DNA of 24,000 bases from an uncultured Haloplasmataceae bacterium (GTDB taxonomy: Bacteria > Bacillota_I > Bacilli_A > Haloplasmatales > Haloplasmataceae). Of the stretch, positions 2,841 through 22,087 are shown piece by piece; position 1 is the stretch's first letter, and every line of letters begins with the position of its first letter. Under the pieces are notes generated by a model that did not search any database, had not been told where the DNA came from, and worked only from the letters and a program-made list of their open reading frames with translations. Position numbers and translations under genes: made by a program. The DNA lies in the NCBI GenBank assembly GCA_937919135.1, contig CALFRW010000151.1, positions 587 to 24,586 on the forward strand, given 5' to 3'.

Positions 2841-3902
2841 ATGAAAAAATTCGATTACATGGCCAAATATGGTTATGAGCAACTAATTTATTTTTATGAC
2901 AAAGAAACGGGATTAAAGGGTATTACTGCAATTCACGATACAACTTTAGGTCCTGCTTTAGGTGGAACCCGTTTGTGGAATTATGCAACAGAAGAAGAAG
3001 CAGCAGAAGATGCATTAAGATTAGCTCGTGGTATGACATATAAGAACGCAGCAGCAGGACTTAATATTGGTGGTGGAAAAACGGTTTTAATTGGTGATGC
3101 TACAAAAGTTAAATCAGAAGCTTATTTCCGTGCCTTAGGTCGTTATGTGCAATCATTAAATGGTCGCTATATTACCGCAGAAGATGTTAATACAAGTGTT
3201 GAAGACATGGATTATGTAATGATGGAAACTGATTACGTCGTTGGTTTAAGAAAAACTTCTGGAGATCCATCTCCGTTTACGGCACTTGGTGTTTATGTCG
3301 GTATAAAAGCATCTTGTAAAGAAAAATTTGGTTCTGACTCTGTTAAAGGTTTAACTGTCGCAGTTCAAGGTGTTGGACACGTAGGATATTATGTTGTTAA
3401 GCATTTAGTTGAAGAAGGTGCTAATGTTATTATTAGTGACATTAATCAAGCTAATATTGATAAAGTTACTAGTGATTTTAAAGTTAAAGTTGTTAAAGCT
3501 GATGAGATTTACAGTGTTGATTGTGATGTTTACACCCCTTGTGCTTTAGGTGCAACGATTAATGATGAAACTATTCCTCAATTAAAATGTAAAATTGTCG
3601 CAGGATCAGCTAATAATGTCTTAAAAGAAGCACGTCATGGTGAAATTCTTCAAGAAAAAGGTATTCTTTATGCTCCAGACTATGTAATTAATGCTGGTGG
3701 CGTAATTAACGTTTATCAAGAAATGTTAGGATATGACATTAATGAAGCAACTAATAAAGTAAATAGTATTTACGATAAGTTATTAGAAGTTTATAAGATA
3801 GCTAGAGAAGAGAAGATTTCGACATCTATTGCTGCAGATAGAATGGCAGAAAAACGGATTGCTAAGATGAAAAATGTAAGAAGCAATTATATAAAACGAT
3901 AA
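2841..3902 (+). CDS. bcd: Leucine (Leu/Val/Phe-type) dehydrogenase, Glu/Leu/Phe/Val dehydrogenase family
   Basis: 353 aa with SD GGGAGG upstream. Motifs are typical of leucine dehydrogenases: [30 protein letters not shown] with the catalytic Lys region, and a Rossmann GVGHVG. Confidence 0.85.
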
Positions 3903-7787: not shown

Positions 7788-8633
7788 CTAGTAGTTAATA
7801 TTTATTACTTTAGGCATTTCAGTTAAAGTAAAATTAGATGAATTAATCCGATAAGTGTTTTTACCATCACCCTCAATTTGTTCTGGATTAGTGAAATGTA
7901 ATTCCACAACTCCTTTGACTTGAACTCCTAATAAACTTGTGATGTTGATATTGATTTTAATCTTTGTGAAGTGATTTAAAGATTCTCTTTGAATAAAACT
8001 ACTTTCCTTTAAAAACACTAAATTAACAATGACATTATTTCTTTTTGTTAACTCATTGTAAAGCAAAAAAACAGTGTTTTGTGTATGGGAAGTTGGTGAA
8101 GTAAAAATATATTTAGTTTGATCACGTTCAAAGGTAATCTTATCAAATGAGATTTTCGACACCATTTTTCCTTCTATAACTCGAAACGGAATTCTTATCG
8201 AAATAAAGTTATATTTATCAGGATTTACGGATACATCTTGCTCAGATACATCATTTTTTAACATATGAAAATTTGTTATGCCTCTTTCAATAAACCTTTT
8301 AATATAACGACTAGATTCATTATAGATAAGCATTCGATCCATAAATTCTATAATCGAATAATTACTGGAGGCAAATTGCAAATCACGAAATAATTCAGCC
8401 CGTTTATTTGTATCATCATTGATTTTACTGACAGTTCGATTATGGTAATAGATTAAAAAGCTAAATGTTGTGCTTGATACAAATGATGCAAAGGCAACTA
8501 ATAATGTCGCTACCCTAATTCCAATGACATTATATTGTTTGTCTAAAGTATCGCCATATATTAATGCAAGAAAAGCTAACATGAATACTAATAGGCTTAA
8601 GGATAGCATTATTGTTAATAATTTGTTTTTCAT
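7788..8633 (-). CDS. Hypothetical membrane protein: two N-terminal TM helices plus a ~210-aa beta-rich domain
   Basis: 281-aa ORF with SD AGGAAGTG upstream of the ATG. The hydrophobic segments are LLTIMLSLSLLVFMLAFLALIY and IRVATLLVAFASFVSSTTFSFLIYY. I recognise no family motif. Confidence 0.55.
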   Translation of the reverse strand: MKNKLLTIMLSLSLLVFMLAFLALIYGDTLDKQYNVIGIRVATLLVAFASFVSSTTFSFLIYYHNRTVSKINDDTNKRAELFRDLQFASSNYSIIEFMDRMLIYNESSRYIKRFIERGITNFHMLKNDVSEQDVSVNPDKYNFISIRIPFRVIEGKMVSKISFDKITFERDQTKYIFTSPTSHTQNTVFLLYNELTKRNNVIVNLVFLKESSFIQRESLNHFTKIKININITSLLGVQVKGVVELHFTNPEQIEGDGKNTYRINSSNFTLTEMPKVININY

Positions 8634-8725
8634 TTAATCACTTCCTAAATATGGTATCTTTATTATAGCTTATCGTCAGTTTTTTTTCTATGTTCGTTAA
8701 TATTTATTGTCTTTTAAGATTTTTA

Positions 8726-8734
8726 TGGTATAAT
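8726..8734 (+). promoter_or_regulatory. Extended -10 promoter (TGgTATAAT) driving the riboswitch leader
   Basis: TGGTATAAT lies about 10 nt upstream of the first conserved riboswitch nucleotides. Confidence 0.5.
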
Positions 8735-8743
8735 CTTAAATAG

Positions 8744-8848
8744 AAATCTCCGAATATTACTTATAGTGGGGGAACCAAATTTGGGGTTAATCTAATTAGA
8801 GGGGAGACTTGAGATCCCTAACCCGTCAGCTAACCTCATAGGAGTACT
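8744..8848 (+). promoter_or_regulatory. c-di-AMP riboswitch aptamer (ydaO/yuaA class)
   Basis: The conserved blocks appear in the correct order: GUGGGGGAACCAA (8766-8778), UUGGGGUUAAUC (8781-8792), AGAGGGGAG, and CCCUAACCCGUCAGCUAACCUCAUAGGAG (8816-8844). The outer helix pairs CUCC (8748-8751) with GGAG (8841-8844). The pseudo-twofold repeat of GGGG..ACC blocks is characteristic of this class. Confidence 0.85.
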
Positions 8849-8851
8849 CAA

Positions 8852-8883
8852 GCGTATAACTAATATATAGTTATGCGTTTTTT
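8852..8883 (+). terminator. Riboswitch expression-platform terminator
   Basis: CGTATAACTA (8853-8862) pairs with TAGTTATGCG (8868-8877) across a 5-nt loop, followed by TTTTTT. It sits immediately 3' of the aptamer and 5' of the antiporter SD. Confidence 0.8.
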
Positions 8884-8919
8884 GATTAGTATAGTAATAT
8901 GAAAGGAGAAGAGAAATAC

Positions 8920-10122
8920 ATGATATTAAAAATTAGTATTGTCTTAATCGTAGGAATTATTTGTGGTAAATTAGCAAATTTAGTTAAATTACCTAATGTA
9001 TCAGGATATTTAATTGCAGGATTATTATTGGGTCCATCATTGATAAACTACATTAGTTCTAAAGATACCCAGTCCTTTGAAATTGTGAATGAATTAGCAT
9101 TATCCTTTATTGCTTTTAGCATTGGAAGTGAATTTGTAATTCATGAAATGGTTAAATATGGGAAGAGGATTTTTGTTATTACTCTAATGGAGGTGGTGGG
9201 AGCTGTTTTAGTAGTTTTTATAGTAATGTATATATTATTCCAACAATCTTTTGCTTTAAGTATCATAATTGCTTCAATGTCTGCAGCAACCGCACCTGCA
9301 GCAACACTTATGGTCATCAAACAATATCGTGCAAATGGACCGCTTACACGAACAATTTTACCTGTTGTTGCCTTAGATGATATATTTGGAATTATGATTT
9401 TTGGTCTAGCGATACCAATAGCAGCAATGTCAATAAGGGGTGTTGAACCATCGTTTATTAATATTGTGATTAACCCTTTAATTGAAATACTTGGCTCTTT
9501 AGTTTTGGGATTTGGATTAGGAGTTATAACCGTACTTATCACAAGAAAAATAAAAACTAATGATGATTTACAAATTACTTCATTAATTGCGATTGGTATT
9601 GGAGTTGGAGTTTCAACATTATTAGGTCTTTCTCCACTATTAACAAATATCATGATCGGATTCGTAATTGTAAATTATTTACCAAGATCTGAAAAAGTAT
9701 TTACCGTAGTTAATCAATTTGTACCCGTATTTTATATCCTCTTTTTTGTCTTAGCAGGAGCCATGTTGGATATAAACATCTTAAAAACCATCGGTTTAAT
9801 CGGAATCGCTTATATTTTTGCTAGAGGTATCGGAAAAATAATTGGGTCATTATTAGGCTGTAAAATAATGAAAGTTGAAAAAAGTGTTTCTAAATATTTA
9901 GGTTTTTGTTTACTTCCACAAGGAGGAGTTTCCATCGGTTTATCTGTAATAGTTAGACAACAAATACCAGAACTTGCAGTGACAATTACCACGATAATCA
10001 TGTGTGGAATATTAGTATATGAAATAGTTGGACCAATTCTTACTAAAATAGCTTTACATAAAGCTGGGGAAGTAAATGGTATGGACGTTAATCAAATAAT
10101 TCTTAAAGGAAGTGAAAGTTAA
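8920..10122 (+). CDS. Cation:proton antiporter, CPA2/Kef-type Na+/H+-exchanger membrane domain only (no RCK domain)
   Basis: Polytopic hydrophobic protein. The N-terminus GKLANLVKLPNVSGYLIAGLLLGPS is typical of the CPA2/KefB/KhtU-like family. I prefer the ATG at 8920 (SD AAAGGAGAAG) over the track start at 8899. Confidence 0.75.
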   Translation: MILKISIVLIVGIICGKLANLVKLPNVSGYLIAGLLLGPSLINYISSKDTQSFEIVNELALSFIAFSIGSEFVIHEMVKYGKRIFVITLMEVVGAVLVVFIVMYILFQQSFALSIIIASMSAATAPAATLMVIKQYRANGPLTRTILPVVALDDIFGIMIFGLAIPIAAMSIRGVEPSFINIVINPLIEILGSLVLGFGLGVITVLITRKIKTNDDLQITSLIAIGIGVGVSTLLGLSPLLTNIMIGFVIVNYLPRSEKVFTVVNQFVPVFYILFFVLAGAMLDINILKTIGLIGIAYIFARGIGKIIGSLLGCKIMKVEKSVSKYLGFCLLPQGGVSIGLSVIVRQQIPELAVTITTIIMCGILVYEIVGPILTKIALHKAGEVNGMDVNQIILKGSES

Positions 10123-10460
10123 TGCAAGTTTTATTTATTATTCTTAATAAGGTAAACTATTTAGATGACATCTTATCAATTTTAGTCAAGTTAAATGTTA
10201 AAGGTGCAACAATCCTTGATAGTCAAGGAATGGCTAGTGCTATTGTAAACAGTGATATAAGATCTATTCCTTTATTTGGTGCATTAAAGGATTTATTAAA
10301 AGAGCATCATCCATATAATAAAACCATTTTTACGGTAATTAAAGATCAAGCGCTTTTATATCAAGTAGTTGAAGAGGTTAAAGCATTACTTAAAAATGAT
10401 AAATTGCCATGTGGTTTTATGTTTACCGTACCTGTAGGTGAGATGTTTCTCCTAAATTAA
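10122..10460 (+). CDS. PII-like (ferredoxin-fold, beta-alpha-beta x2) small protein, possible regulatory partner of the antiporter
   Basis: 112 aa with the start overlapping the antiporter stop (TAATG). The predicted pattern is b1 VLFIILNK, a1 LDDILSILVKL, b2 GATILDSQG, a long loop, b3 KTIFTVIKD, a2 LLYQVVEEVKALL, b4 GFMFTVPVGE. This resembles PII/PstA(DarA)-like proteins. The assignment rests on fold pattern only. Confidence 0.45.
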   Translation: MQVLFIILNKVNYLDDILSILVKLNVKGATILDSQGMASAIVNSDIRSIPLFGALKDLLKEHHPYNKTIFTVIKDQALLYQVVEEVKALLKNDKLPCGFMFTVPVGEMFLLN

Positions 10461-10467
10461 ATTAATA

Positions 10468-10495
10468 AAAGCGGAATGAGTAATCAATCCGCTTT
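10468..10495. terminator. Bidirectional terminator hairpin between the PII-like gene (+) and topB (-)
   Basis: AAAGCGGA (10468-10475) pairs with TCCGCTTT (10488-10495), with A and T runs on both sides. It overlaps the last codons of topB. Confidence 0.6.
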
Positions 10496-12673
10496 ATTTT
10501 TTAATTTTAGTTCTTTTAAGGCATCAGCTAAACTAGAGTTAACCGCCACATCATTTTCTTTATTAATCTTATTTATATACTTAGCAACATCTTTTTTTGA
10601 TAGTTTATTTTTTTCTTTTTTCATCCGCGCATTATAGGTTGCTAACTTTTCTTTATGCCCACATTTACAGATAAAGATTTGGTTTTCAGCCTCACCATAT
10701 AACTCTAAGCGCTTATGACAAACAGGACATCTTGCATTAGTCATTTTGGCAACTGTTTGGCGGTAATTGCAACTACGGTCTTGGCAAGTAAGCATTTTGT
10801 AGTCCTTAGTTTTAACTTCTAAAAGGAATTTCCCACATTTTGGGCATTGTTTAGTAGAAAGATTATCATGCTTAAACAATTTGTCGCTATTTTTAATTTC
10901 TTTAACTACTATTTGTGCGTATTTTTTCATTTCAGTAATATAAGTAGATTCGTTTAACTCACCTTTTGCGATTTGAGAAAGTTTTTGTTCCCATTCAGCA
11001 GTTAACAGCGGTGATTTTAATTCTTCTGGCACTATTTCTAATAATTGTTTTCCTTTACCAGTTATATATATATCCTTACCACGTTTTTCGATTAAAAAGG
11101 TATTAAACAATTTTTCAATTATATCAGCACGTGTAGCTACAGTCCCTAAACCTCCTGTTTCACTAATCGTTTTAAGCAAAGTTTTATCTGAACTATCCAT
11201 ATACTTAACAGGATTTTCCATTACTTGAAGTAGCGTATCTTCGGTAAATGGACGTGGTGGATTTGTTTGTCCTGTCGTAGAAATTATTTTGTCAAGTTTT
11301 AGTTTCTCATTAAGTTTTAATTCTGGCAATATTTGGAGGTTTAGATCCATTTCTTCATCGTGGTAATTATAGATTTCTTTAAAACCTTGATTAATAATTT
11401 TTCTTCCTTGAGCATTAAATTGTTCATCACCAATCGTAAGTGTGACTTTAATTTCATCATATTCAAAAGCAGGATAAAGCACTGCTAAAAATCTTTTGAT
11501 CACTAAATCATAAATTTTAAATTCTCTATCATTTAACTTATTAATATTAAGCTGTTCCTCAGTGGGGATAATTGCATGATGATCCGATACCTTTTTATCA
11601 TCAACAAACGCTTTATTTGCTTTAATTGGAGCTTGTAATATTTGTTCAATTGTTTTGTGATAAGGACTGTTTTTAATTGCTTGTAACCTCTCCTTTAGTG
11701 TTGGAACGATATCAGTAGTTAAATAATTTGAATCGGTTCTAGGATAGGTTAATATTTTATGGTATTCATAAAGGCTTTGCATAATAGCTAAGGTCTCTTT
11801 AGGAGAAAAACCATATATCCTATTTGCATCTCTTTGAAGGAGTGTTAAATTATATAAACAAGGGGCAACTTGAAACTTATGGGTGGTTTTAATTTGAGAA
11901 ATTAAGGCACTTCGGTGATTCAGTTTTGTGATAACCTCGTTGCGATATGTTTCATTAAATGTTTTTCGATCATTTGTCAATTTATCATACCAGGTAAAGA
12001 TAATATTTTTAACGAGCACTTGAATGCCATAAAAAGTTTTTGGTTGAAAATTACGAATTTCTGACTCTCGTTTTGCGATTATCGCGAGGGTAGGTGTTTG
12101 GACTCTACCACACGATAATTGGGCATTATATTTTGTCGTTAAGGCTCTGGTAGCGTTTATTCCAACATACCAATCAGCATATGCCCTTGATTTTGCTGAA
12201 GCATATAAGTTCTCATATAAATGTCCTGCTTTTAAGTTATTAAATCCAGCGGTAATAGCTTTGTCTGTAACAGATGAAATCCATAACCTGTTGATTTTCT
12301 TTCTGATATTAGCTTTTTCAATAATCCAACGTGCAACAAGTTCGCCTTCACGTCCAGCATCTGTTGCGATCACAATTTCATTAACATCATTTCGTGCCAT
12401 TTGTGTTTTCACAATGTTATATTGTTTTCTGGTCTTTGGAATTATAGCTAATTTTAAATCTTGAGGAATAATCGGTAAATCATGTAAATTCCAAGTTTTA
12501 TACTTTGAATTATATCTCTCTGGGTCTGCAAGTGTAACTAGATGGCCTAATGCCCAGGTAATAATATATTTTGAATTTTCAAAAAAGCCATATTCTTTGT
12601 GATGGCATTTTAATACTTTAGCGATATCTTTTGCAACTGATGGTTTTTCAGCTAGTACTAATATTTTACTCAT
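10484..12673 (-). CDS. topB: DNA topoisomerase III
   Basis: 729 aa. Toprim N-terminus LVLAEKPSVAKDIA, active-site LTYPRTDSNYL, and two C-terminal Cys4 zinc ribbons (CPKCGK...CQDRSC and CPVCHK...CKCGH). Confidence 0.9.
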   Translation of the reverse strand: MSKILVLAEKPSVAKDIAKVLKCHHKEYGFFENSKYIITWALGHLVTLADPERYNSKYKTWNLHDLPIIPQDLKLAIIPKTRKQYNIVKTQMARNDVNEIVIATDAGREGELVARWIIEKANIRKKINRLWISSVTDKAITAGFNNLKAGHLYENLYASAKSRAYADWYVGINATRALTTKYNAQLSCGRVQTPTLAIIAKRESEIRNFQPKTFYGIQVLVKNIIFTWYDKLTNDRKTFNETYRNEVITKLNHRSALISQIKTTHKFQVAPCLYNLTLLQRDANRIYGFSPKETLAIMQSLYEYHKILTYPRTDSNYLTTDIVPTLKERLQAIKNSPYHKTIEQILQAPIKANKAFVDDKKVSDHHAIIPTEEQLNINKLNDREFKIYDLVIKRFLAVLYPAFEYDEIKVTLTIGDEQFNAQGRKIINQGFKEIYNYHDEEMDLNLQILPELKLNEKLKLDKIISTTGQTNPPRPFTEDTLLQVMENPVKYMDSSDKTLLKTISETGGLGTVATRADIIEKLFNTFLIEKRGKDIYITGKGKQLLEIVPEELKSPLLTAEWEQKLSQIAKGELNESTYITEMKKYAQIVVKEIKNSDKLFKHDNLSTKQCPKCGKFLLEVKTKDYKMLTCQDRSCNYRQTVAKMTNARCPVCHKRLELYGEAENQIFICKCGHKEKLATYNARMKKEKNKLSKKDVAKYINKINKENDVAVNSSLADALKELKLKNKAD

Positions 12674-13040: not shown

Positions 13041-15071
13041 ATGAAGAAAATATCTTATACAGCAATATTTTCATTAATAATACAAACGATAATCACATTT
13101 GGTATAAACTGGATTTATTTTTTTATTTATTATCGTTTAAATAAATATTCATTTTTAGCTTCCAACAGTGAACATGATGAAAATAGTTTTATCGCTTTTT
13201 TTAAAACTAACCGCGATAAATTATCTATTTTTTCGATTGTATTATATTTTATTTTTCTCATCATTTTTTCGTTGTCGATTATGCTGGTTAACGATGTTAA
13301 TTTTTTTATGATATTACATTATCAATTATGGGATTATATTAAAAGTAATCTTTTATACGCAATATTACTAGCAATAATTATTTTCTTTTTATTAACTTAC
13401 GGATATAAAATTCTCATGAAAAATGTATATCATACGATATATAAAAACAACAATCAATATTTTGATAATTATAATGAAACTGACTTAACGATTTTCATTC
13501 TTTTATGCTTTCTCACATTAGGATGGTTTTATATCATTTTCTTATTTGCCTTAGGAATCTATGAATTACATACATTTATGGTAAACAAAATATATAATAA
13601 AACTCCATACCGCTTTAGTATCCTTGGCTTTCTTGCTTTATTTTCGATTGCTTTTTTAAGTTTATTCCTAATTGTTTATACGATAAAATATCATCAATTT
13701 TTAAGTAATGTAACGATTTATTTTATCACAGTTTTTATTCTCAATATCTTTTTAAATTATGGTTTTTATGAATTAAGAATGAATATCTTCTTGAATAAAC
13801 GGTTAGATATTTTAAGCAAAAAAAGTAATTTTAAATTATCAATTGATAAAAAAATGTTTTCATTATGTATTTTAGTTGTTGTTATCGGATTATTATATTC
13901 ACTATTACATGTCTATAATATTAATGATATTCATATAAAGGATTTCGACAATTTAAGTACCGATAATTTAGCTTGCGAAGAAATTACAGATAAAGATTAT
14001 CGTGTGTGTCGAAAGAGCTTAGACGATTTTGATGAATCAAGTAAAATTTATCAAAAATATAATATCTGGCAAAGGCAATATGCCAATTATGCTTTACATC
14101 AAAAATTAATTGTTTCACATGTAAAAGCTGATGAAATTATAAAGAATCCAATCGTAATTAATTACTCTGGAGAGATACTATATACATCAAAAGAAGGGCT
14201 GTTAACACCTAATAGTAAAGAAGCATATTTATATGTTCAAACGTATTATAAAAAAAATGGTAATGATTTTGTACCAGTATTTAATATTATTAAAAACCTG
14301 GAGTTAATTCTTGATTTGAATAATAATTCTTTATATTTATCGATACTAAATAATAACGTTTATAAATATGATTTCTTAGAAGATACATTAAATCAATATA
14401 ATGAACATTATCAAATAATTGATACTTCAAGATTAATCTTAGACGATTTAACTATTTCCTTTAAGTCAAATACCAACAATATTTATGGTTATAATATTAA
14501 AGAAGAGTTAACTTATTTAGATATTAGATCTAAAAATAATATTGGTAATTTATTATTACTTATTAGTTATTTAGATCCTTTTCCAATCGATGAATTATTG
14601 TTTCATTTTAGTCAAACATTTAGTCCACTAACAGAAGAAAAAATTAAATATCTCAGTCCTTACGATCTAAGTGTTTTTAGACTATATCATAATACTAAAC
14701 ATATATCATATTACAATGACCGCCAATATTTATATATGGCTAATTTAAATGAAAGAGAACATATTGTAAATGAAAATTACTTATTTAATGAGAAAAAAGA
14801 AATAGAGTTATGTACAAAAACTAATTGTGACACAGATTTGAAATTTTATAATAATAAAATCGATATCGGATATCTTTCAAATACTTTATACACAGATGAA
14901 TATATTGAAAGAGATGATAATTTTAAAATAAACGATAACAAATACATCACTTTATTAACTGAGGGTAGAAAATATTTTGATGGTAATGCTTATCTTGGTT
15001 TTACGATTAAAACAATAAAGGATTATTTCACAGGTCAATTTATTAGTAGTGAAAGTATTATCATTGATTAG
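13041..15071 (+). CDS. Hypothetical protein: about 7 N-terminal TM helices plus a ~370-aa Asn/Tyr/Ile/Lys-rich C-terminal domain
   Basis: 676-aa uninterrupted ORF, with an extended -10 (TGTTATAAT, 13000-13008) and SD AAAAGGTTAGGA upstream. The hydrophobic segments occupy roughly residues 8-285. No family motif recognised. The gene is much more AT-rich than its neighbours. Confidence 0.55.
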   Translation: MKKISYTAIFSLIIQTIITFGINWIYFFIYYRLNKYSFLASNSEHDENSFIAFFKTNRDKLSIFSIVLYFIFLIIFSLSIMLVNDVNFFMILHYQLWDYIKSNLLYAILLAIIIFFLLTYGYKILMKNVYHTIYKNNNQYFDNYNETDLTIFILLCFLTLGWFYIIFLFALGIYELHTFMVNKIYNKTPYRFSILGFLALFSIAFLSLFLIVYTIKYHQFLSNVTIYFITVFILNIFLNYGFYELRMNIFLNKRLDILSKKSNFKLSIDKKMFSLCILVVVIGLLYSLLHVYNINDIHIKDFDNLSTDNLACEEITDKDYRVCRKSLDDFDESSKIYQKYNIWQRQYANYALHQKLIVSHVKADEIIKNPIVINYSGEILYTSKEGLLTPNSKEAYLYVQTYYKKNGNDFVPVFNIIKNLELILDLNNNSLYLSILNNNVYKYDFLEDTLNQYNEHYQIIDTSRLILDDLTISFKSNTNNIYGYNIKEELTYLDIRSKNNIGNLLLLISYLDPFPIDELLFHFSQTFSPLTEEKIKYLSPYDLSVFRLYHNTKHISYYNDRQYLYMANLNEREHIVNENYLFNEKKEIELCTKTNCDTDLKFYNNKIDIGYLSNTLYTDEYIERDDNFKINDNKYITLLTEGRKYFDGNAYLGFTIKTIKDYFTGQFISSESIIID

Positions 15072-17828: not shown

Positions 17829-17863
17829 AAATATTGTTAATGTTAAAAAACGGGAGGAAAAGG

Positions 17864-19558
17864 ATGAAGTTTGAAGATTTTAAGTATGTACGTCCGAGTA
17901 TGGATGAAGTAAAAACCAGGTTTGATAAATTATTAAAACAGTTTGAAGCAGCAGATAATTTCACTGAAGTAGACAAAATAATGAGTGATATTATCAAATT
18001 ACGTAATGAATTTGAAACTATGCAAACTTTAGTTAGTATAAGACATTCTATTAATACTGTTGATGAGTTTTATGAAAAAGAAATGGAATTCTTTAACGAA
18101 AACGTTCCTTTATATCAAGAAGAGGTTAGTAAATATTATCAATGTTTACTAAATTCTAAATTCAAAAATGAACTCGAAGAAAAATGGGGAACTCATTTAT
18201 TCAATATTGCAGAATTAGCATTAAAAACATTTTCAAAAGAAATTATTGAAGAGCTTCAAAAAGAAAACAAATTATCCAGCAATTATCAAAAACTAATTGC
18301 ATCAGCTAAAATAATGTTTGAAGGTGAAGAGCGAAATTTATCACAAATGGCACCATTTACCCAATCACTAGACCGCTCGATGCGTAAAAAGGCACAATTA
18401 GCTATTACCGACTTTTTTCTAGAAAATGAAGCCAAATTTGATGAAATATACGATGAACTAGTCCATGTTCGTAATAATATGGCAAAAAAATTAGGCTATG
18501 ATAACTATGTCAAATTAGGGTATGACAGATTATCTCGTACTGATTATGATGTAAATATGGTCGCTAACTATCGGAAACAGGTATTAGAGGATTTAGTACC
18601 TGTAGCACAAAAATTATTAAATCGACAAGCAAAACGCTTGGGAGTGGAAAGCTTAAAGTATTATGATGAAGGATTAAGATTTTTATCAGGAAATGCCAAA
18701 CCTAAAGGCGATGAACCATGGTTAGTTAATAACGCGAAACAAATGTATCATGAATTATCACCTGAAACCGATGAATTTTTTACCCTTATGACAGAGAACA
18801 ATTTAATGGATTTAGTAGCGAAAAAGGGAAAAGCAGGTGGAGGTTATTGTACGTTTATTAATAATTATAAATCACCATTTATCTTTGCTAATTTTAATGG
18901 AACAAGTGGTGATGTTGATGTTTTAACGCATGAAGCAGGTCATGCTTTCCAAGTTTATAATAGTAGAGAATATGAAGTTCCTGAATACACTTGGCCAACT
19001 TATGAGGCTTGTGAAATCCACTCAATGAGTATGGAATTTCTTACTTGGCCGTGGATGAAGCTTTTCTTTCAAGAAGATGAAGCAAAATATAAGTTTGCTC
19101 ATCTAAATGATGCACTACTGTTTATACCATATGGTGTTTTAGTTGATGAATTTCAACATTTTGTATACGAGAACCCTAATGTTTCACCACAAGAAAGAAA
19201 AGCTAAATGGCGTGAAATTGAGAAGAAGTATCTACCACATAAGGATTATGAGGATAATGATTTTTATAATCGGGGTGGTTATTGGTTTAGACAAGGTCAT
19301 ATATTTGGTACACCATTTTATTATATTGATTACACGCTTGCACAGGTCTGTGCTTTTCAATATTGGGTTAAATCTCGTGAAAATCGCGAGCAAGCTTGGG
19401 ACAGTTATCTAAAACTATGTAAATTAGGAGGAACCAAACCTTTCCTAGAATTAGCAAAACTTGCAGGATTACAGAATCCCTTTGAAGATGGTAGTATAAA
19501 ATCAGTTATTGAACCAATTGAGGCATATCTAAATCAAGTAGATGATGCAAAACTCTAA
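17864..19558 (+). CDS. M3-family oligoendopeptidase (PepF-like)
   Basis: HEAGHAF zinc motif (HExxH) with a downstream E (YEACEIHS). I prefer the ATG at 17864, which has SD GGGAGG at 6 nt, over the track start at 17834. Confidence 0.8.
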   Translation: MKFEDFKYVRPSMDEVKTRFDKLLKQFEAADNFTEVDKIMSDIIKLRNEFETMQTLVSIRHSINTVDEFYEKEMEFFNENVPLYQEEVSKYYQCLLNSKFKNELEEKWGTHLFNIAELALKTFSKEIIEELQKENKLSSNYQKLIASAKIMFEGEERNLSQMAPFTQSLDRSMRKKAQLAITDFFLENEAKFDEIYDELVHVRNNMAKKLGYDNYVKLGYDRLSRTDYDVNMVANYRKQVLEDLVPVAQKLLNRQAKRLGVESLKYYDEGLRFLSGNAKPKGDEPWLVNNAKQMYHELSPETDEFFTLMTENNLMDLVAKKGKAGGGYCTFINNYKSPFIFANFNGTSGDVDVLTHEAGHAFQVYNSREYEVPEYTWPTYEACEIHSMSMEFLTWPWMKLFFQEDEAKYKFAHLNDALLFIPYGVLVDEFQHFVYENPNVSPQERKAKWREIEKKYLPHKDYEDNDFYNRGGYWFRQGHIFGTPFYYIDYTLAQVCAFQYWVKSRENREQAWDSYLKLCKLGGTKPFLELAKLAGLQNPFEDGSIKSVIEPIEAYLNQVDDAKL

Positions 19559-19919: not shown

Positions 19920-20750
19920 TTGCATGATAAACTTGAAATGATCGGTTCTTCTTTAATACAACATGGGAAATATAATGATCGAATTTATTTACTTGATTTT
20001 AATCCTCTCGATTTAGCTAAATTATTTAATCGTTTTAATGAATTAGTTAAAAAAAATAATTATGCAAAAATTGTTGCTAAAGTACCAGAAAACTACAAAA
20101 ACAATTTTATTAATAAAGGTTATATTGAAGAAGCAAAAATACCTAATTATTATAATGGCGAAGTGGATTTATTTTTCTTAGCAAAATATCATGAGCTAGA
20201 GCGAAAAAAAGAAAAAGAGAAAAATAAAGCTAAGCAGATTATTCAAATCGCGAAGCATAAAAGAAATGAAAATAGTTTTATAATTGATAAAACATTAGCA
20301 TATAAAATACTTGATGAAAAAGATATAGGGAATATGATTGAATTATATAAAAGAGTGTTTAAGACATATCCCTTTCCGATTTTTGAAAGCGATTATCTTA
20401 AACAAACAATGAATGAAAATATTATTTATTTTGGTGTATTTAAGGCAGGGGTTTTAATTGGCATTTCAGCTTGTGAAATAAACTATAATAAATCAGTAGT
20501 TGAAATGACAGATTTTGCGGTATTAAAGAACTATCGTGGGAAGCAGATTTCGCTTTTTTTATTACACAAGATGGAAGCATATATGAGAAAATTACAGATT
20601 AAAAAAGCATATACCATGGCTCGATCACTATCGTATGGAATGAATATTGCTTTTTCTAAAATGGGGTATAATTATTCAGGAACGGTTATTAATAATGCGA
20701 ATATATCTGGTGCAATTGAGAGCCTAAATATTTGGCATAAAGATTTATAG
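19920..20750 (+). CDS. GNAT acetyltransferase with an N-terminal extension, resembling putative beta-lysine N-acetyltransferase (AblB/YodP-like)
   Basis: TTG start 6 nt after GGAGG. The N-terminal IGSSLIQHGKYNDRIYLL resembles my memory of the AblB family. The C-terminal half has a GNAT acetyl-CoA motif (VLKNYRGKQISLFLL). No lysine 2,3-aminomutase gene is adjacent. Confidence 0.55.
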   Translation: MHDKLEMIGSSLIQHGKYNDRIYLLDFNPLDLAKLFNRFNELVKKNNYAKIVAKVPENYKNNFINKGYIEEAKIPNYYNGEVDLFFLAKYHELERKKEKEKNKAKQIIQIAKHKRNENSFIIDKTLAYKILDEKDIGNMIELYKRVFKTYPFPIFESDYLKQTMNENIIYFGVFKAGVLIGISACEINYNKSVVEMTDFAVLKNYRGKQISLFLLHKMEAYMRKLQIKKAYTMARSLSYGMNIAFSKMGYNYSGTVINNANISGAIESLNIWHKDL

Positions 20751-21434
20751 AAAATGAAAAACAAATATATAGACAAGTACAGTGAATAGGACACTTGATA
20801 AGGTACCAATTAAATAATATTCTGAAAATGCAGGTTCATCATTAATTCTTTTATAGCGAGCGATTGACTTAGCTGTAAAAATTAAGCCAATTGAAGTATA
20901 GAGGGTATTAATCAGGCAAATTAAGATTAAAATTCTTTCTAAAACCCCAATTGTTGCACCGGCATTTTTAAATGTTTGATCAATTTCATCCTTATCTTCT
21001 GGTTTAAATTGCTTAAAGAGCATCTTGAATAAGACATTACATGGTAACCCAATAAGTAGTAAACTAAGGACAATTTTAAAAAATGTTTGATTATTAGTGA
21101 TAAAACTATATTCATATGTTAAATACTGATCAACGAATAAAATAATAAAAAATTGAAGTATTTGCTCGCTAATAAACAATAAGTTCTTTTTAGAGGTGCG
21201 AGTGTAAAAATAGTAGTACAACATATGAATGAAATAATGCGAAATACCTAAAATAAGGTAAACTACAAATAATTTTAGATTAAACTGAAAAACAAGTAGT
21301 AGTAATAGTAGGGTTTGATAGACTAAAGAACTATAGAAAATTTGTTTTAATTGAAGGTTTTTATTGTTGAAAATGTAATAATTAGACAGTAAATAAATAA
21401 TTAAAATTAAAATCCCAATTTCCATTATCCTCAT
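20745..21434 (-). CDS. DUF3307 (SatE-like) integral membrane protein
   Basis: 229 aa and polytopic. The NAGATIGVLERILI...AKSIARY...SEYYLIGTLSS block is typical of DUF3307. The start overlaps the satD-like stop (ATGA). Confidence 0.65.
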   Translation of the reverse strand: MRIMEIGILILIIYLLSNYYIFNNKNLQLKQIFYSSLVYQTLLLLLLVFQFNLKLFVVYLILGISHYFIHMLYYYFYTRTSKKNLLFISEQILQFFIILFVDQYLTYEYSFITNNQTFFKIVLSLLLIGLPCNVLFKMLFKQFKPEDKDEIDQTFKNAGATIGVLERILILICLINTLYTSIGLIFTAKSIARYKRINDEPAFSEYYLIGTLSSVLFTVLVYIFVFHFL

Positions 21435-22087
21435 CCTTTATATAAAATTTTCGCAATCGTTTGTTGCGCATAAACTAAATCATAAAATAATGAGAGTTTA
21501 AGTTTTTTGTTTATATTTACAGGGCTTAAACCAATCTCATTTGCTACTTGTTTTTGAATAAAATTATCTGTTAAACCATATTTAAGGATTATATAATCAA
21601 TGACAGCCATTTGGTCTTTTGTCCAGTTATTTTTTATTGAATGACAAAAGCTTAAGTTGATATTTAATAAATCTAAGATATTATCGTCCTTAATTCCAGC
21701 AATTTTAACATTGGAAACAAGTTTTAGTCCCTTACGGTTGTTTTTTAAATCACTAATCATATCTCTGGCGTTCCACCATGCAGGTCCATCAGAACCGATA
21801 GATGCCTTGTTGTTAATATTTGTAATTATTTCTCCAATCCCAATACCGAATCTGATTTTATATGGTCGCATAATTGCTTCAAGTTTATTAATAATTTCGA
21901 ATAAATTACGAGGGGTTTTTAATAATCCTTGAAATTCGTCTCCGAGCGTAATAATAAAATTAGCTGCGATATCATTTTTATAATAAAGATTGATTTCTTC
22001 AAGAAACAACTTTAACTTTTCTTGAGTTTCTAAACGATCATTTATTTTCTTTGAATTAATTATATCACCAATTATGGCGTAATACAT
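21431..22087 (-). CDS. SatD-family protein: cyclase/GGDEF-like N-terminal motifs plus a C-terminal HTH
   Basis: 218 aa. The N-terminus MYYAIIGDIINSKKIND...ITLGDEFQGLL is typical of the SatD family (Streptococcus sat locus). The C-terminal QVANEIGLSPVNINKKLK looks like an HTH. Confidence 0.65.
   Translation of the reverse strand: MYYAIIGDIINSKKINDRLETQEKLKLFLEEINLYYKNDIAANFIITLGDEFQGLLKTPRNLFEIINKLEAIMRPYKIRFGIGIGEIITNINNKASIGSDGPAWWNARDMISDLKNNRKGLKLVSNVKIAGIKDDNILDLLNINLSFCHSIKNNWTKDQMAVIDYIILKYGLTDNFIQKQVANEIGLSPVNINKKLKLSLFYDLVYAQQTIAKILYKG

Follow-up and report, generated by a model that had tools for sequence, protein, structure and literature searches.

Cyclic di-adenosine monophosphate (c-di-AMP) has been described as a messenger that rises at plentiful K+, shuts off the uptake of K+ and osmolytes and, by way of their RCK_C domains, stimulates the K+ exporters CpaA and KhtTU (PMC10636490). 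The targets of c-di-AMP riboswitches named in reviews were K+ transporters, amino-acid transporters, osmolyte systems and cell-wall enzymes. Here we analysed 24,000 nucleotides (nt) of DNA from an uncultured Haloplasmataceae bacterium (GenBank assembly GCA_937919135.1, contig CALFRW010000151.1, positions 587 to 24,586 of the forward strand), a stretch referred to as the window, in which a c-di-AMP aptamer and an intrinsic terminator preceded two genes, one for a CPA2-like cation/proton antiporter and one for a small PII-like protein. Taken as a whole, and with good though not full confidence, we read this locus as a two-gene operon that c-di-AMP switches off by terminating transcription, with a NapA-like antiporter that likely extrudes Na+ or Li+ and a PII-like partner. 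Such an operon would tie c-di-AMP signalling to probable Na+/H+ exchange.

The closest described riboswitches were those of kimA (ydaO) and ktrAB (yuaA) in Bacillus subtilis (PMC10636490) and of the kdp operon in Bacillus thuringiensis (PMC6488665), all of them terminating OFF switches. The leader in the window had the same aptamer class, 5'-leader position and intrinsic-terminator platform as kimA, ktrAB and kdpFABC, and the same ligand-caused termination was expected of it. However, its downstream genes encoded a NapA-like antiporter and a PII-like protein rather than a K+ uptake system, and its terminator began directly after the 3' strand of the pseudoknot, with no clear antiterminator. 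It has also been reported that osmotic-stress genes are sometimes served by c-di-AMP and Na+ riboswitches working in tandem, as in the Na+/c-di-AMP logic gate of Dehalobacter sp. CF (White et al. 2022, PMC9337991). In that design, as in the window, the aptamer was set apart from the terminator, the setting was salt or osmotic stress, and nucleotides of helix P1 and of the pseudoknot were placed against the terminator's left shoulder, in our case within a local hairpin. Unlike the Dehalobacter system, the window had a single riboswitch and no tandem, its alternative pairing was 7 bp long, weak and not conserved, and the regulated gene encoded a transporter instead of an enzyme of osmolyte synthesis.

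Among the described transporters, NapA-like genes annotated as 'kefB' were known targets of Na+ riboswitches in Clostridia, where they serve Na+ export (PMC9337991). The Na+-I (DUF1646) riboswitch in front of such 'kefB'/napA-like genes, for instance in Clostridium acetobutylicum, resembled the window in that a NapA-like CPA2 antiporter was placed under a terminator-type riboswitch for ionic or osmotic signals (PMC9337991). It differed in its aptamer, its ligand and its polarity, since Na+ switches these genes on, and orthology of the two antiporter groups is not implied by the comparison. The link between a CPA2 protein and c-di-AMP was also found in KhtTU and CpaA (B. subtilis, Staphylococcus aureus) and in CpeAB (Streptomyces), where c-di-AMP controls the antiporter at the protein level, and the operon likewise included a gene for a small cytoplasmic partner (KhtT or CpeA in those systems, the PII-like protein in the window). 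In contrast to them, control in the window would act at the RNA level and probably negatively, neither protein had an RCK_C domain, the partner had a PII fold and the antiporter motifs favoured Na+ over K+. Finally, a transporter gene tightly linked to a gene for a PII-fold protein of about 110 residues was a feature shared with AmtB-GlnK and SbtA-SbtB. SbtB is also reported to bind c-di-AMP (PMC8654305). Compared with these pairs, the transporter in the window was of the CPA2 type, the B-loop sequence GDGKIF was replaced, and the T-loop region was long and highly conserved.

The c-di-AMP aptamer and its terminator

The leader contained the following features.

8707-8734, + strand: promoter-like site of the sigma-70 type, with -35 TTGTCT at 8707-8712, a 16-nt spacer and an extended -10 TG-n-TATAAT at 8726-8734
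8738-8859, + strand: c-di-AMP riboswitch aptamer (RF00379 match), with the functional core from 8748 (5' strand of P1) to 8852 (3' strand of the pseudoknot)
8748-8751, + strand: 5' strand of P1, CUCC, paired with GGAG at 8841-8844 in the structure line of the Rfam alignment
8808-8813, + strand: 5' strand of the pseudoknot, CUUGAG, a loop segment of the hairpin 8801-8819 (GGGA...UCCC)
8841-8844, + strand: 3' strand of P1, GGAG, from the Rfam alignment and the pairing in orthologs
8847-8852, + strand: 3' strand of the pseudoknot, CUCAAG, in the 3' tail two nt past P1 and directly abutting the 5' arm of the terminator
8853-8883, + strand: intrinsic terminator, with a 10-bp core stem (8853-8862 with 8868-8877), a loop at 8863-8867 and a run of six U at 8878-8883

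A search of the window with cmscan and Rfam 15 gave one match only, to RF00379 (c-di-AMP riboswitch, ydaO/yuaA leader), at 85.7 bits and E 5.6e-19, far above the gathering score of 38. This match was full-length (model positions 1-134 of 134, not truncated). A first-pass annotation of the DNA, made by a model from the letters alone, had proposed a ydaO-class c-di-AMP aptamer and had named a covariance-model search as its check; the search bore the proposal out, and each of the blocks was found where it had been placed, namely GUGGGGGAACCAA at 8766-8778, UUGGGGUUAAUC at 8781-8792, AGAGGGGAG at 8798-8806 and CCCUAACCCGUCAGCUAACCUCAUAGGAG at 8816-8844. The conserved core nucleotides of the class (CCGAAU, GGGGGA-CC, GGGGUGAAUC and ACCCGUCAGCUAACC) were present with all their blocks. 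The single deviation in the core was UUAAUC for UGAAUC at 8787-8792, with U where the class consensus has G. This variant was common to the window and about ten of its closest relatives (L005-L010, L018, L040), and the other orthologs had UGAAUC.

The closing helix CUCC/GGAG of the first-pass annotation coincided with P1, and the Rfam alignment also located a long helix (GUGGGG 8766-8771 with CCUCAU 8834-8839) and the small hairpins. The covariation test used the structure that the window itself has in the Rfam alignment, carried over to 46 leaders, that of the window and 45 orthologous ones. P1 was paired in 98.9% of cells, and the aptamer structure including the pseudoknot in 95.6%, with 12 pairs changed on both sides. 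None of 500 shuffles reached the observed values of pairing and covariation, and controls with slid partners paired at 38-55%. Thus, the segment 8748-8852 is a bona fide ydaO-class c-di-AMP aptamer, with which an mRNA of two genes begins at its 5' end. It is an ordinary member of the RF00379 class, and the aptamer itself adds nothing new to that class.

The pseudoknot consisted of 6 bp between 8808-8813 and 8847-8852, and its five core pairs were retained in 45-46 of the 46 leaders. The 45 orthologous leaders paired CUUGG with CCAAG. The fifth pair was A-U in the window only and G-C in the other 45, which is a compensatory two-sided change, and the window gained a sixth pair, G-C. The same topology was seen in the crystallised ydaO RNA, where a loop CUCCUUC is complementary to a tail GAAGGAG (sequence in PMC5393176), and White et al. 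placed an 'aptamer pseudoknot' beside the right shoulder of P1 (PMC9337991). The pairing CUUGAG/CUCAAG is the pseudoknot of the class, which belongs to the ligand-bound fold and does not compete with it. The suggestion that it might be an alternative structure was therefore given up, in view of the 45 orthologous leaders, the compensatory change and the crystallised topology. A role of the same pairing as an antiterminator was ruled out on the grounds of that topology and of ortholog conservation.

The strong terminator that had been predicted directly after the aptamer (8853-8877 with a U-run) was recovered as a hairpin of -13.5 kcal/mol (z = -3.8), a value equalled by 1 of 200 shuffles. Between 8500 and 10700 there was only one other terminator-like site. 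Its stem could be extended by A8850, A8851 and G8852 with U8878-8880 (A-U, A-U and G-U) to 13 pairs with a loop of 5. A hairpin was found right after the pseudoknot in 45 of 45 orthologous leaders, with the consensus CCAAGCGUAUGAC...AUGCGCUUUUUU, and 39 of them passed a strict scan for a hairpin plus U-run. In L010, L046 and L075 the U-run was interrupted, and in L032, L047 and L078 the strict scan was shortened by the detection of the start of the open reading frame (ORF), the hairpin being visible in the alignment. The platform of a terminator that starts directly after the pseudoknot is thus conserved. Upstream, the promoter-like site had 10 of 12 consensus matches with the TG present, and sites of this kind were as frequent in the region as expected from shuffles. 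The start of transcription implied by this consensus match would be at about 8740-8743, some 6 nt before P1.

The antiporter gene

The first gene behind the leader was the following.

8920-10122, + strand: CPA2-like cation/proton antiporter of 400 residues, starting with ATG at 8920 behind the ribosome-binding sequence AGGAG (8904-8908)

The mechanical ORF started at 8899, and the alignments of orthologs began at residues 1-3 of the 8920 start; ATG 8920 is most probably the true start. The protein matched Pfam Na_H_Exchanger (PF00999, E 6.9e-33, residues 7-367), and a Pfam search found no RCK/KTN domain (TrkA_N, TrkA_C) in it or in its 112-residue partner. Its only match to a PDB sequence at E < 1e-3 was Thermus NapA (4bwz, E 2.9e-10), and KefC was not matched at that level. 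The aspartates 153-154 (L-D-D-I-F) aligned with D156/D157 of NapA (I-D-D-V-L), and K306 (G-K-I-I-G) with K305 (G-K-V-L-G). This DD, the motif of transmembrane segment 5, was present in 65 of 68 antiporter orthologs and the lysine, that of segment 10, in 71 of 71. The first-pass annotation had named a CPA2-type cation:proton antiporter, which agreed with PF00999 and with NapA as the best solved relative. The protein is best described as a CPA2-like, NapA-like antiporter that lacks RCK domains, and we assigned it to no curated subfamily.

It has been reported that K+/H+ exchangers have QD in place of the ND/DD of Na+/H+ exchangers (KefC structure paper, PMC11150392). The antiporter in the window had no QD motif and had DD instead. 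This QD rule applies to the K+-selective Kef-like clade (PMC11150392, PMC6181914). According to Masrati et al., D at motif position 6 together with K at position 8 accompanies electrogenic transport of the NhaA/NapA type, and Ser/Thr at position 4 of the CPA motif accompanies K+ selectivity (PMC6181914). Exchange of Na+ (or Li+) against H+ is accordingly the more likely activity as far as the motifs suggest.

A less likely possibility, to which we gave perhaps a minor share of belief, was that the riboswitch is real and the antiporter moves K+, as a K+/H+ exchanger or a GerN-like Na+/H+-K+ exchanger. CPA2 proteins with a DD motif do include Na+/H+-K+ antiporters of the GerN type (PMC6181914), the motif ATAP in transmembrane segment 4 (TM4) consists of small residues, which Masrati et al. 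tied loosely to K+ selectivity (PMC6181914), and the c-di-AMP riboswitch targets of known function were mostly related to K+ (PMC10636490). However, QD and Ser/Thr at position 4, the marks of the K+-selective Kef-like clade, were both absent, as was an RCK domain, and it was NapA and not KefC that was matched at E < 1e-3. If the antiporter did move K+, the effect of c-di-AMP on this CPA2 protein would be repression, exerted on the RNA, in contrast to KhtTU and CpaA, which it activates as proteins. Such regulation would follow a genuinely different logic, for example a transporter that aids K+ retention or uptake or is needed only at low K+.

The PII-like partner and conservation of the arrangement

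The second gene overlapped the first.

10122-10460, + strand: PII-like protein of 112 residues, its start codon lying on the last base of the antiporter stop codon (TAATG)

This gene was absent from the first-pass annotation, and it proved to be the most conserved partner of the riboswitch leader. A topoisomerase gene at 10484-12673 (- strand) converged on the two genes, and therefore the transcription unit consists of the antiporter and the PII-like gene. By eye, a hairpin AGCGGA ... UCCGCU followed by UUAUUUU was seen at 10470-10499, between the PII-like and topoisomerase genes. It did not appear in the list of the terminator scan because its loop has 12 nt, and it is probably a shared or bidirectional terminator.

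The PII-like protein had 367 relatives in the databases, many of them with a precomputed Pfam P-II assignment and some named "nitrogen regulatory protein PII". Its own score against Pfam P-II (PF00543) was 18.8 bits, under the cutoff of 25. An AlphaFold2 model built with 72 homologs (predicted local distance difference test 82, predicted template-modelling score 0.72) showed the order strand-helix-strand, loop, strand-helix-strand, that is, two beta-alpha-beta units. The best PDB matches of this model in Foldseek were PII/GlnK, PotN, SbtB and CPII (probability 1.00, template-modelling scores 0.6-0.78). The canonical B-loop GDGKIF aligned with G-V-G-L-M-F; the window had CGFMF, and the pattern of the family was G-x-G-(F/L)-M-F. 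Moreover, the T-loop region of the family was long and unusually conserved (ATILDSQGM...PLFG...PYNKTIFTV). According to the model, the protein is PII-like, with a predicted PII fold and a non-canonical B-loop, and is not a canonical GlnB or GlnK. Its linkage to the antiporter gene and its fold suggest that it is probably a regulatory partner of the antiporter.

The arrangement was followed in a scan of one genome per GTDB species. Relatives of the PII-like protein were encoded in 318 genomes, and the analysis covered the 80 best loci. These loci came from Clostridia, Tissierellia, Bacilli-like genomes and Acholeplasmatales, and were mostly metagenome-assembled. The genome GCA_036844665.1, which was assembled from a fermentation metagenome, had a contig to which the window was identical. 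Of the 78 informative loci, 72 had an antiporter homolog (43-67% identity) as the neighbour of the PII-like gene; it lay upstream in 70 of them and downstream in the other 2. Where enough upstream DNA was available (64 loci), RF00379 scored above its gathering score in front of the pair in 45, at 63-283 nt from the antiporter start. Thus, a c-di-AMP riboswitch is conserved before the antiporter and PII-like pair in Clostridia, Bacilli-like and Acholeplasmatales genomes. No c-di-AMP riboswitch or other Rfam match was found upstream of the remaining 19 pairs, mostly from Tissierellaceae (L026-L029, L034, L035, L038, L043-L045, L049, L057, L060, L065, L076, L079-L082). The antiporters of pairs that lacked the riboswitch tended to diverge more, with a mean identity of 51% versus 58%.

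One locus, L055 of Acetivibrio straminisolvens JCM 21531, had a degenerate RF00379 match (2785-2916, 63.7 bits) directly before a stand-alone PII-like gene (2990-3342) with no antiporter nearby. Upstream of the other stand-alone or inverted PII-like genes (L050, L054, L056, L064, L070, L071 and L083), no weaker riboswitch match was present at E <= 0.1. Several details of these loci were noted in passing. The PII-like gene of L055 seemed to have no normal start (ATT where ATG was expected), which may be an error of the draft sequence, and the related Acetivibrio loci L054 and L056 had no riboswitch even at that E-value. In L064 (2799-2863) and L071 (2813-2879), where the order was inverted with the PII-like gene first, a long and perfect-looking palindromic hairpin stood just upstream of the PII-like gene; both hairpins gave sub-threshold matches to microRNA models on both strands.

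We tentatively propose, at somewhat less than even confidence, that the riboswitch controls an undescribed transporter/PII-like module, in which the 112-residue protein would be a dedicated cytoplasmic regulator of the NapA-like antiporter, comparable to GlnK with AmtB, SbtB with SbtA and KhtT with KhtU. It would represent a new PII-like subfamily and may sense an adenine nucleotide, conceivably c-di-AMP, which SbtB and DarA sense. This proposal was made because of the near-obligate linkage (72 of 78), the overlap of stop and start codons, the conserved T-loop-like segment and the one lone PII-like gene led by a riboswitch. We found no description of a PII-like/CPA2 pairing in the limited collection of literature that was searched. 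If such a module existed, Na+/H+ exchange would be under two-tier control, by RNA and by protein. An uncharacterised PII-like family is here nominated as a transporter regulator.

Switch polarity and proposed regulation

White et al. interpreted an aptamer set apart from the terminator as an OFF arrangement, and in the presence of ligand their Dehalobacter c-di-AMP riboswitch allowed less than 5% read-through in vitro (PMC9337991). The aptamer in the window was likewise set apart from the terminator core. Since the validated members terminate on ligand and this layout holds, OFF, that is, termination of transcription triggered by c-di-AMP, was rated the most likely polarity by analogy. The step that would couple ligand binding to termination was inferred. 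One candidate for it was found in the leader.

8839-8862, + strand: weak candidate antiterminator, formed by UAG 8839-8841 and GUAC 8844-8847 on one side, GUAU 8854-8857 and CUA 8860-8862 on the other

This pairing would draw on P1, on the long helix and on the pseudoknot for its nucleotides and would mask most of the 5' arm of the terminator (-4.8 kcal/mol, z = -1.86 versus arm shuffles).

A number of observations spoke against the preferred reading. No convincing or conserved antiterminator was found in the window or in the 45 orthologous leaders. Namely, the best duplex of the aptamer with the 5' arm of the terminator in the window reached only -3.3 kcal/mol in RNAduplex, and over the 46 leaders the same program found no complementarity of the aptamer to either terminator arm above that of shuffled arms (mean z +0.3 to +0.9). 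Partial matches of the aptamer to the arms were restricted to lineages (CGUCAGCU with UGACG, UCAUA with UAUGA), and no alternative consensus helix emerged from RNAalifold when the alignments were cut off ahead of the 3' arm. The candidate given above was weak next to the terminator of -13.5 kcal/mol and not conserved, with a mean z of +0.09 over the 46 leaders; when the segment from the 3' part of the aptamer through the 5' arm was folded, only the window and L006 (z -1.83) were outliers. Thermodynamic folding of the leader always formed the terminator. Minimum free energy folding is, however, uninformative on switching, because it did not recover the pseudoknotted aptamer and always kept the terminator. 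Additionally, the change from G to U in the highly conserved UGAAUC block may affect c-di-AMP binding, and 19 of the 64 orthologous gene pairs had no riboswitch. On the protein side, the TM4 motif ATAP was unlike that of NapA (ATSV) and of Kef (LSST), the NCBIfam CPA2 subfamily model TIGR00932 stayed below threshold (57.1 bits versus a cutoff of 238.3), as did the NCBIfam MagA match, and sequence is no reliable guide to ion specificity.

The opposite polarity, in which the ligand-stabilised pseudoknot keeps AAG 8850-8852 (CCAAG in ortholog leaders) out of the terminator base and weakens the terminator so that c-di-AMP induces the antiporter, appeared improbable. It would fit a logic in which c-di-AMP promotes cation export, no conserved antiterminator was found, such as an OFF switch would require, and the pseudoknot 3' strand and the extended terminator stem do have three nucleotides in common, of which the shared G forms a G-C pair next to the U-run in the ortholog leaders. 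However, A8850, A8851 and G8852 were the only shared nucleotides and give in the window no more than A-U, A-U and G-U, and the 10-bp core stem still abuts six U with the pseudoknot formed. In the orthologs, loss of the G-C pair would leave a spacer of just one nt. Moreover, all of the experimentally tested members cited here terminate upon ligand binding (PMC9337991, PMC6488665, PMC10636490). An ON switch through this overlap was judged unlikely in view of the untouched core stem in the window. More improbable still was a leader that has kept the aptamer fold and lost the switch, with the terminator as a constitutive attenuator and the operon controlled elsewhere: the terminator formed in every thermodynamic model, the searches gave no antiterminator signal and the window has its G-to-U change, but the RF00379 score was far over threshold and the aptamer, pseudoknot and terminator were conserved jointly over 45 divergent genomes with compensatory changes, a pattern that is difficult to account for unless ligand-dependent function is under selection.

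Under the preferred OFF reading, abundant c-di-AMP would bind as two molecules and lock both P1 (8748-8751/8841-8844) and the pseudoknot (8808-8813/8847-8852). With the aptamer locked, 8853-8877 could fold into the terminator, and RNA polymerase would halt on reaching the U-run (8878-8883). At low c-di-AMP levels, such as those under K+ shortage or under hyperosmotic or salt stress, P1 and the pseudoknot would have loose 3' strands. These could disturb the terminator arm next to them, possibly by way of the hairpin of 8839-8847 with 8854-8862, and the operon would be read through. The antiporter made under these conditions would most likely extrude Na+ (or Li+) against H+. Because it is most likely such an extruder, its expression at low c-di-AMP would fit the usual osmotic-stress logic of the messenger. 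This leader family may serve as a compact test case of how a ligand signal reaches termination when the terminator is fused to the pseudoknot and no antiterminator can be recognised.

The first-pass annotation had pointed to an opposite logic, as a transcriptional OFF switch would silence an antiporter of a kind that c-di-AMP activates in other Firmicutes. Its premise of a K+ exporter like KhtTU or CpaA was not supported, given that the protein had no RCK domain and had the DD and lysine of NapA-type antiporters, not the QD of Kef-type exchangers. Of the two ways out that it offered, a different substrate was favoured and an unusual polarity of the switch was not. The paradox was probably an artefact of assuming a K+ exporter, and would disappear because the antiporter lacks RCK domains and has a NapA-type motif.

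Elsewhere in the window, three sizeable ORFs had no Pfam match: 7788-8633 (- strand, 281 residues), 13041-15071 (+ strand, 676 residues) and 17834-19558 (+ strand, 574 residues). The first of them was divergent from the promoter region of the riboswitch and had a hydrophobic N-terminus. A gene of the SatD family and a DUF3307 gene lay next to each other at 20745-22087 (- strand), forming a small two-gene unit unrelated to the riboswitch operon.

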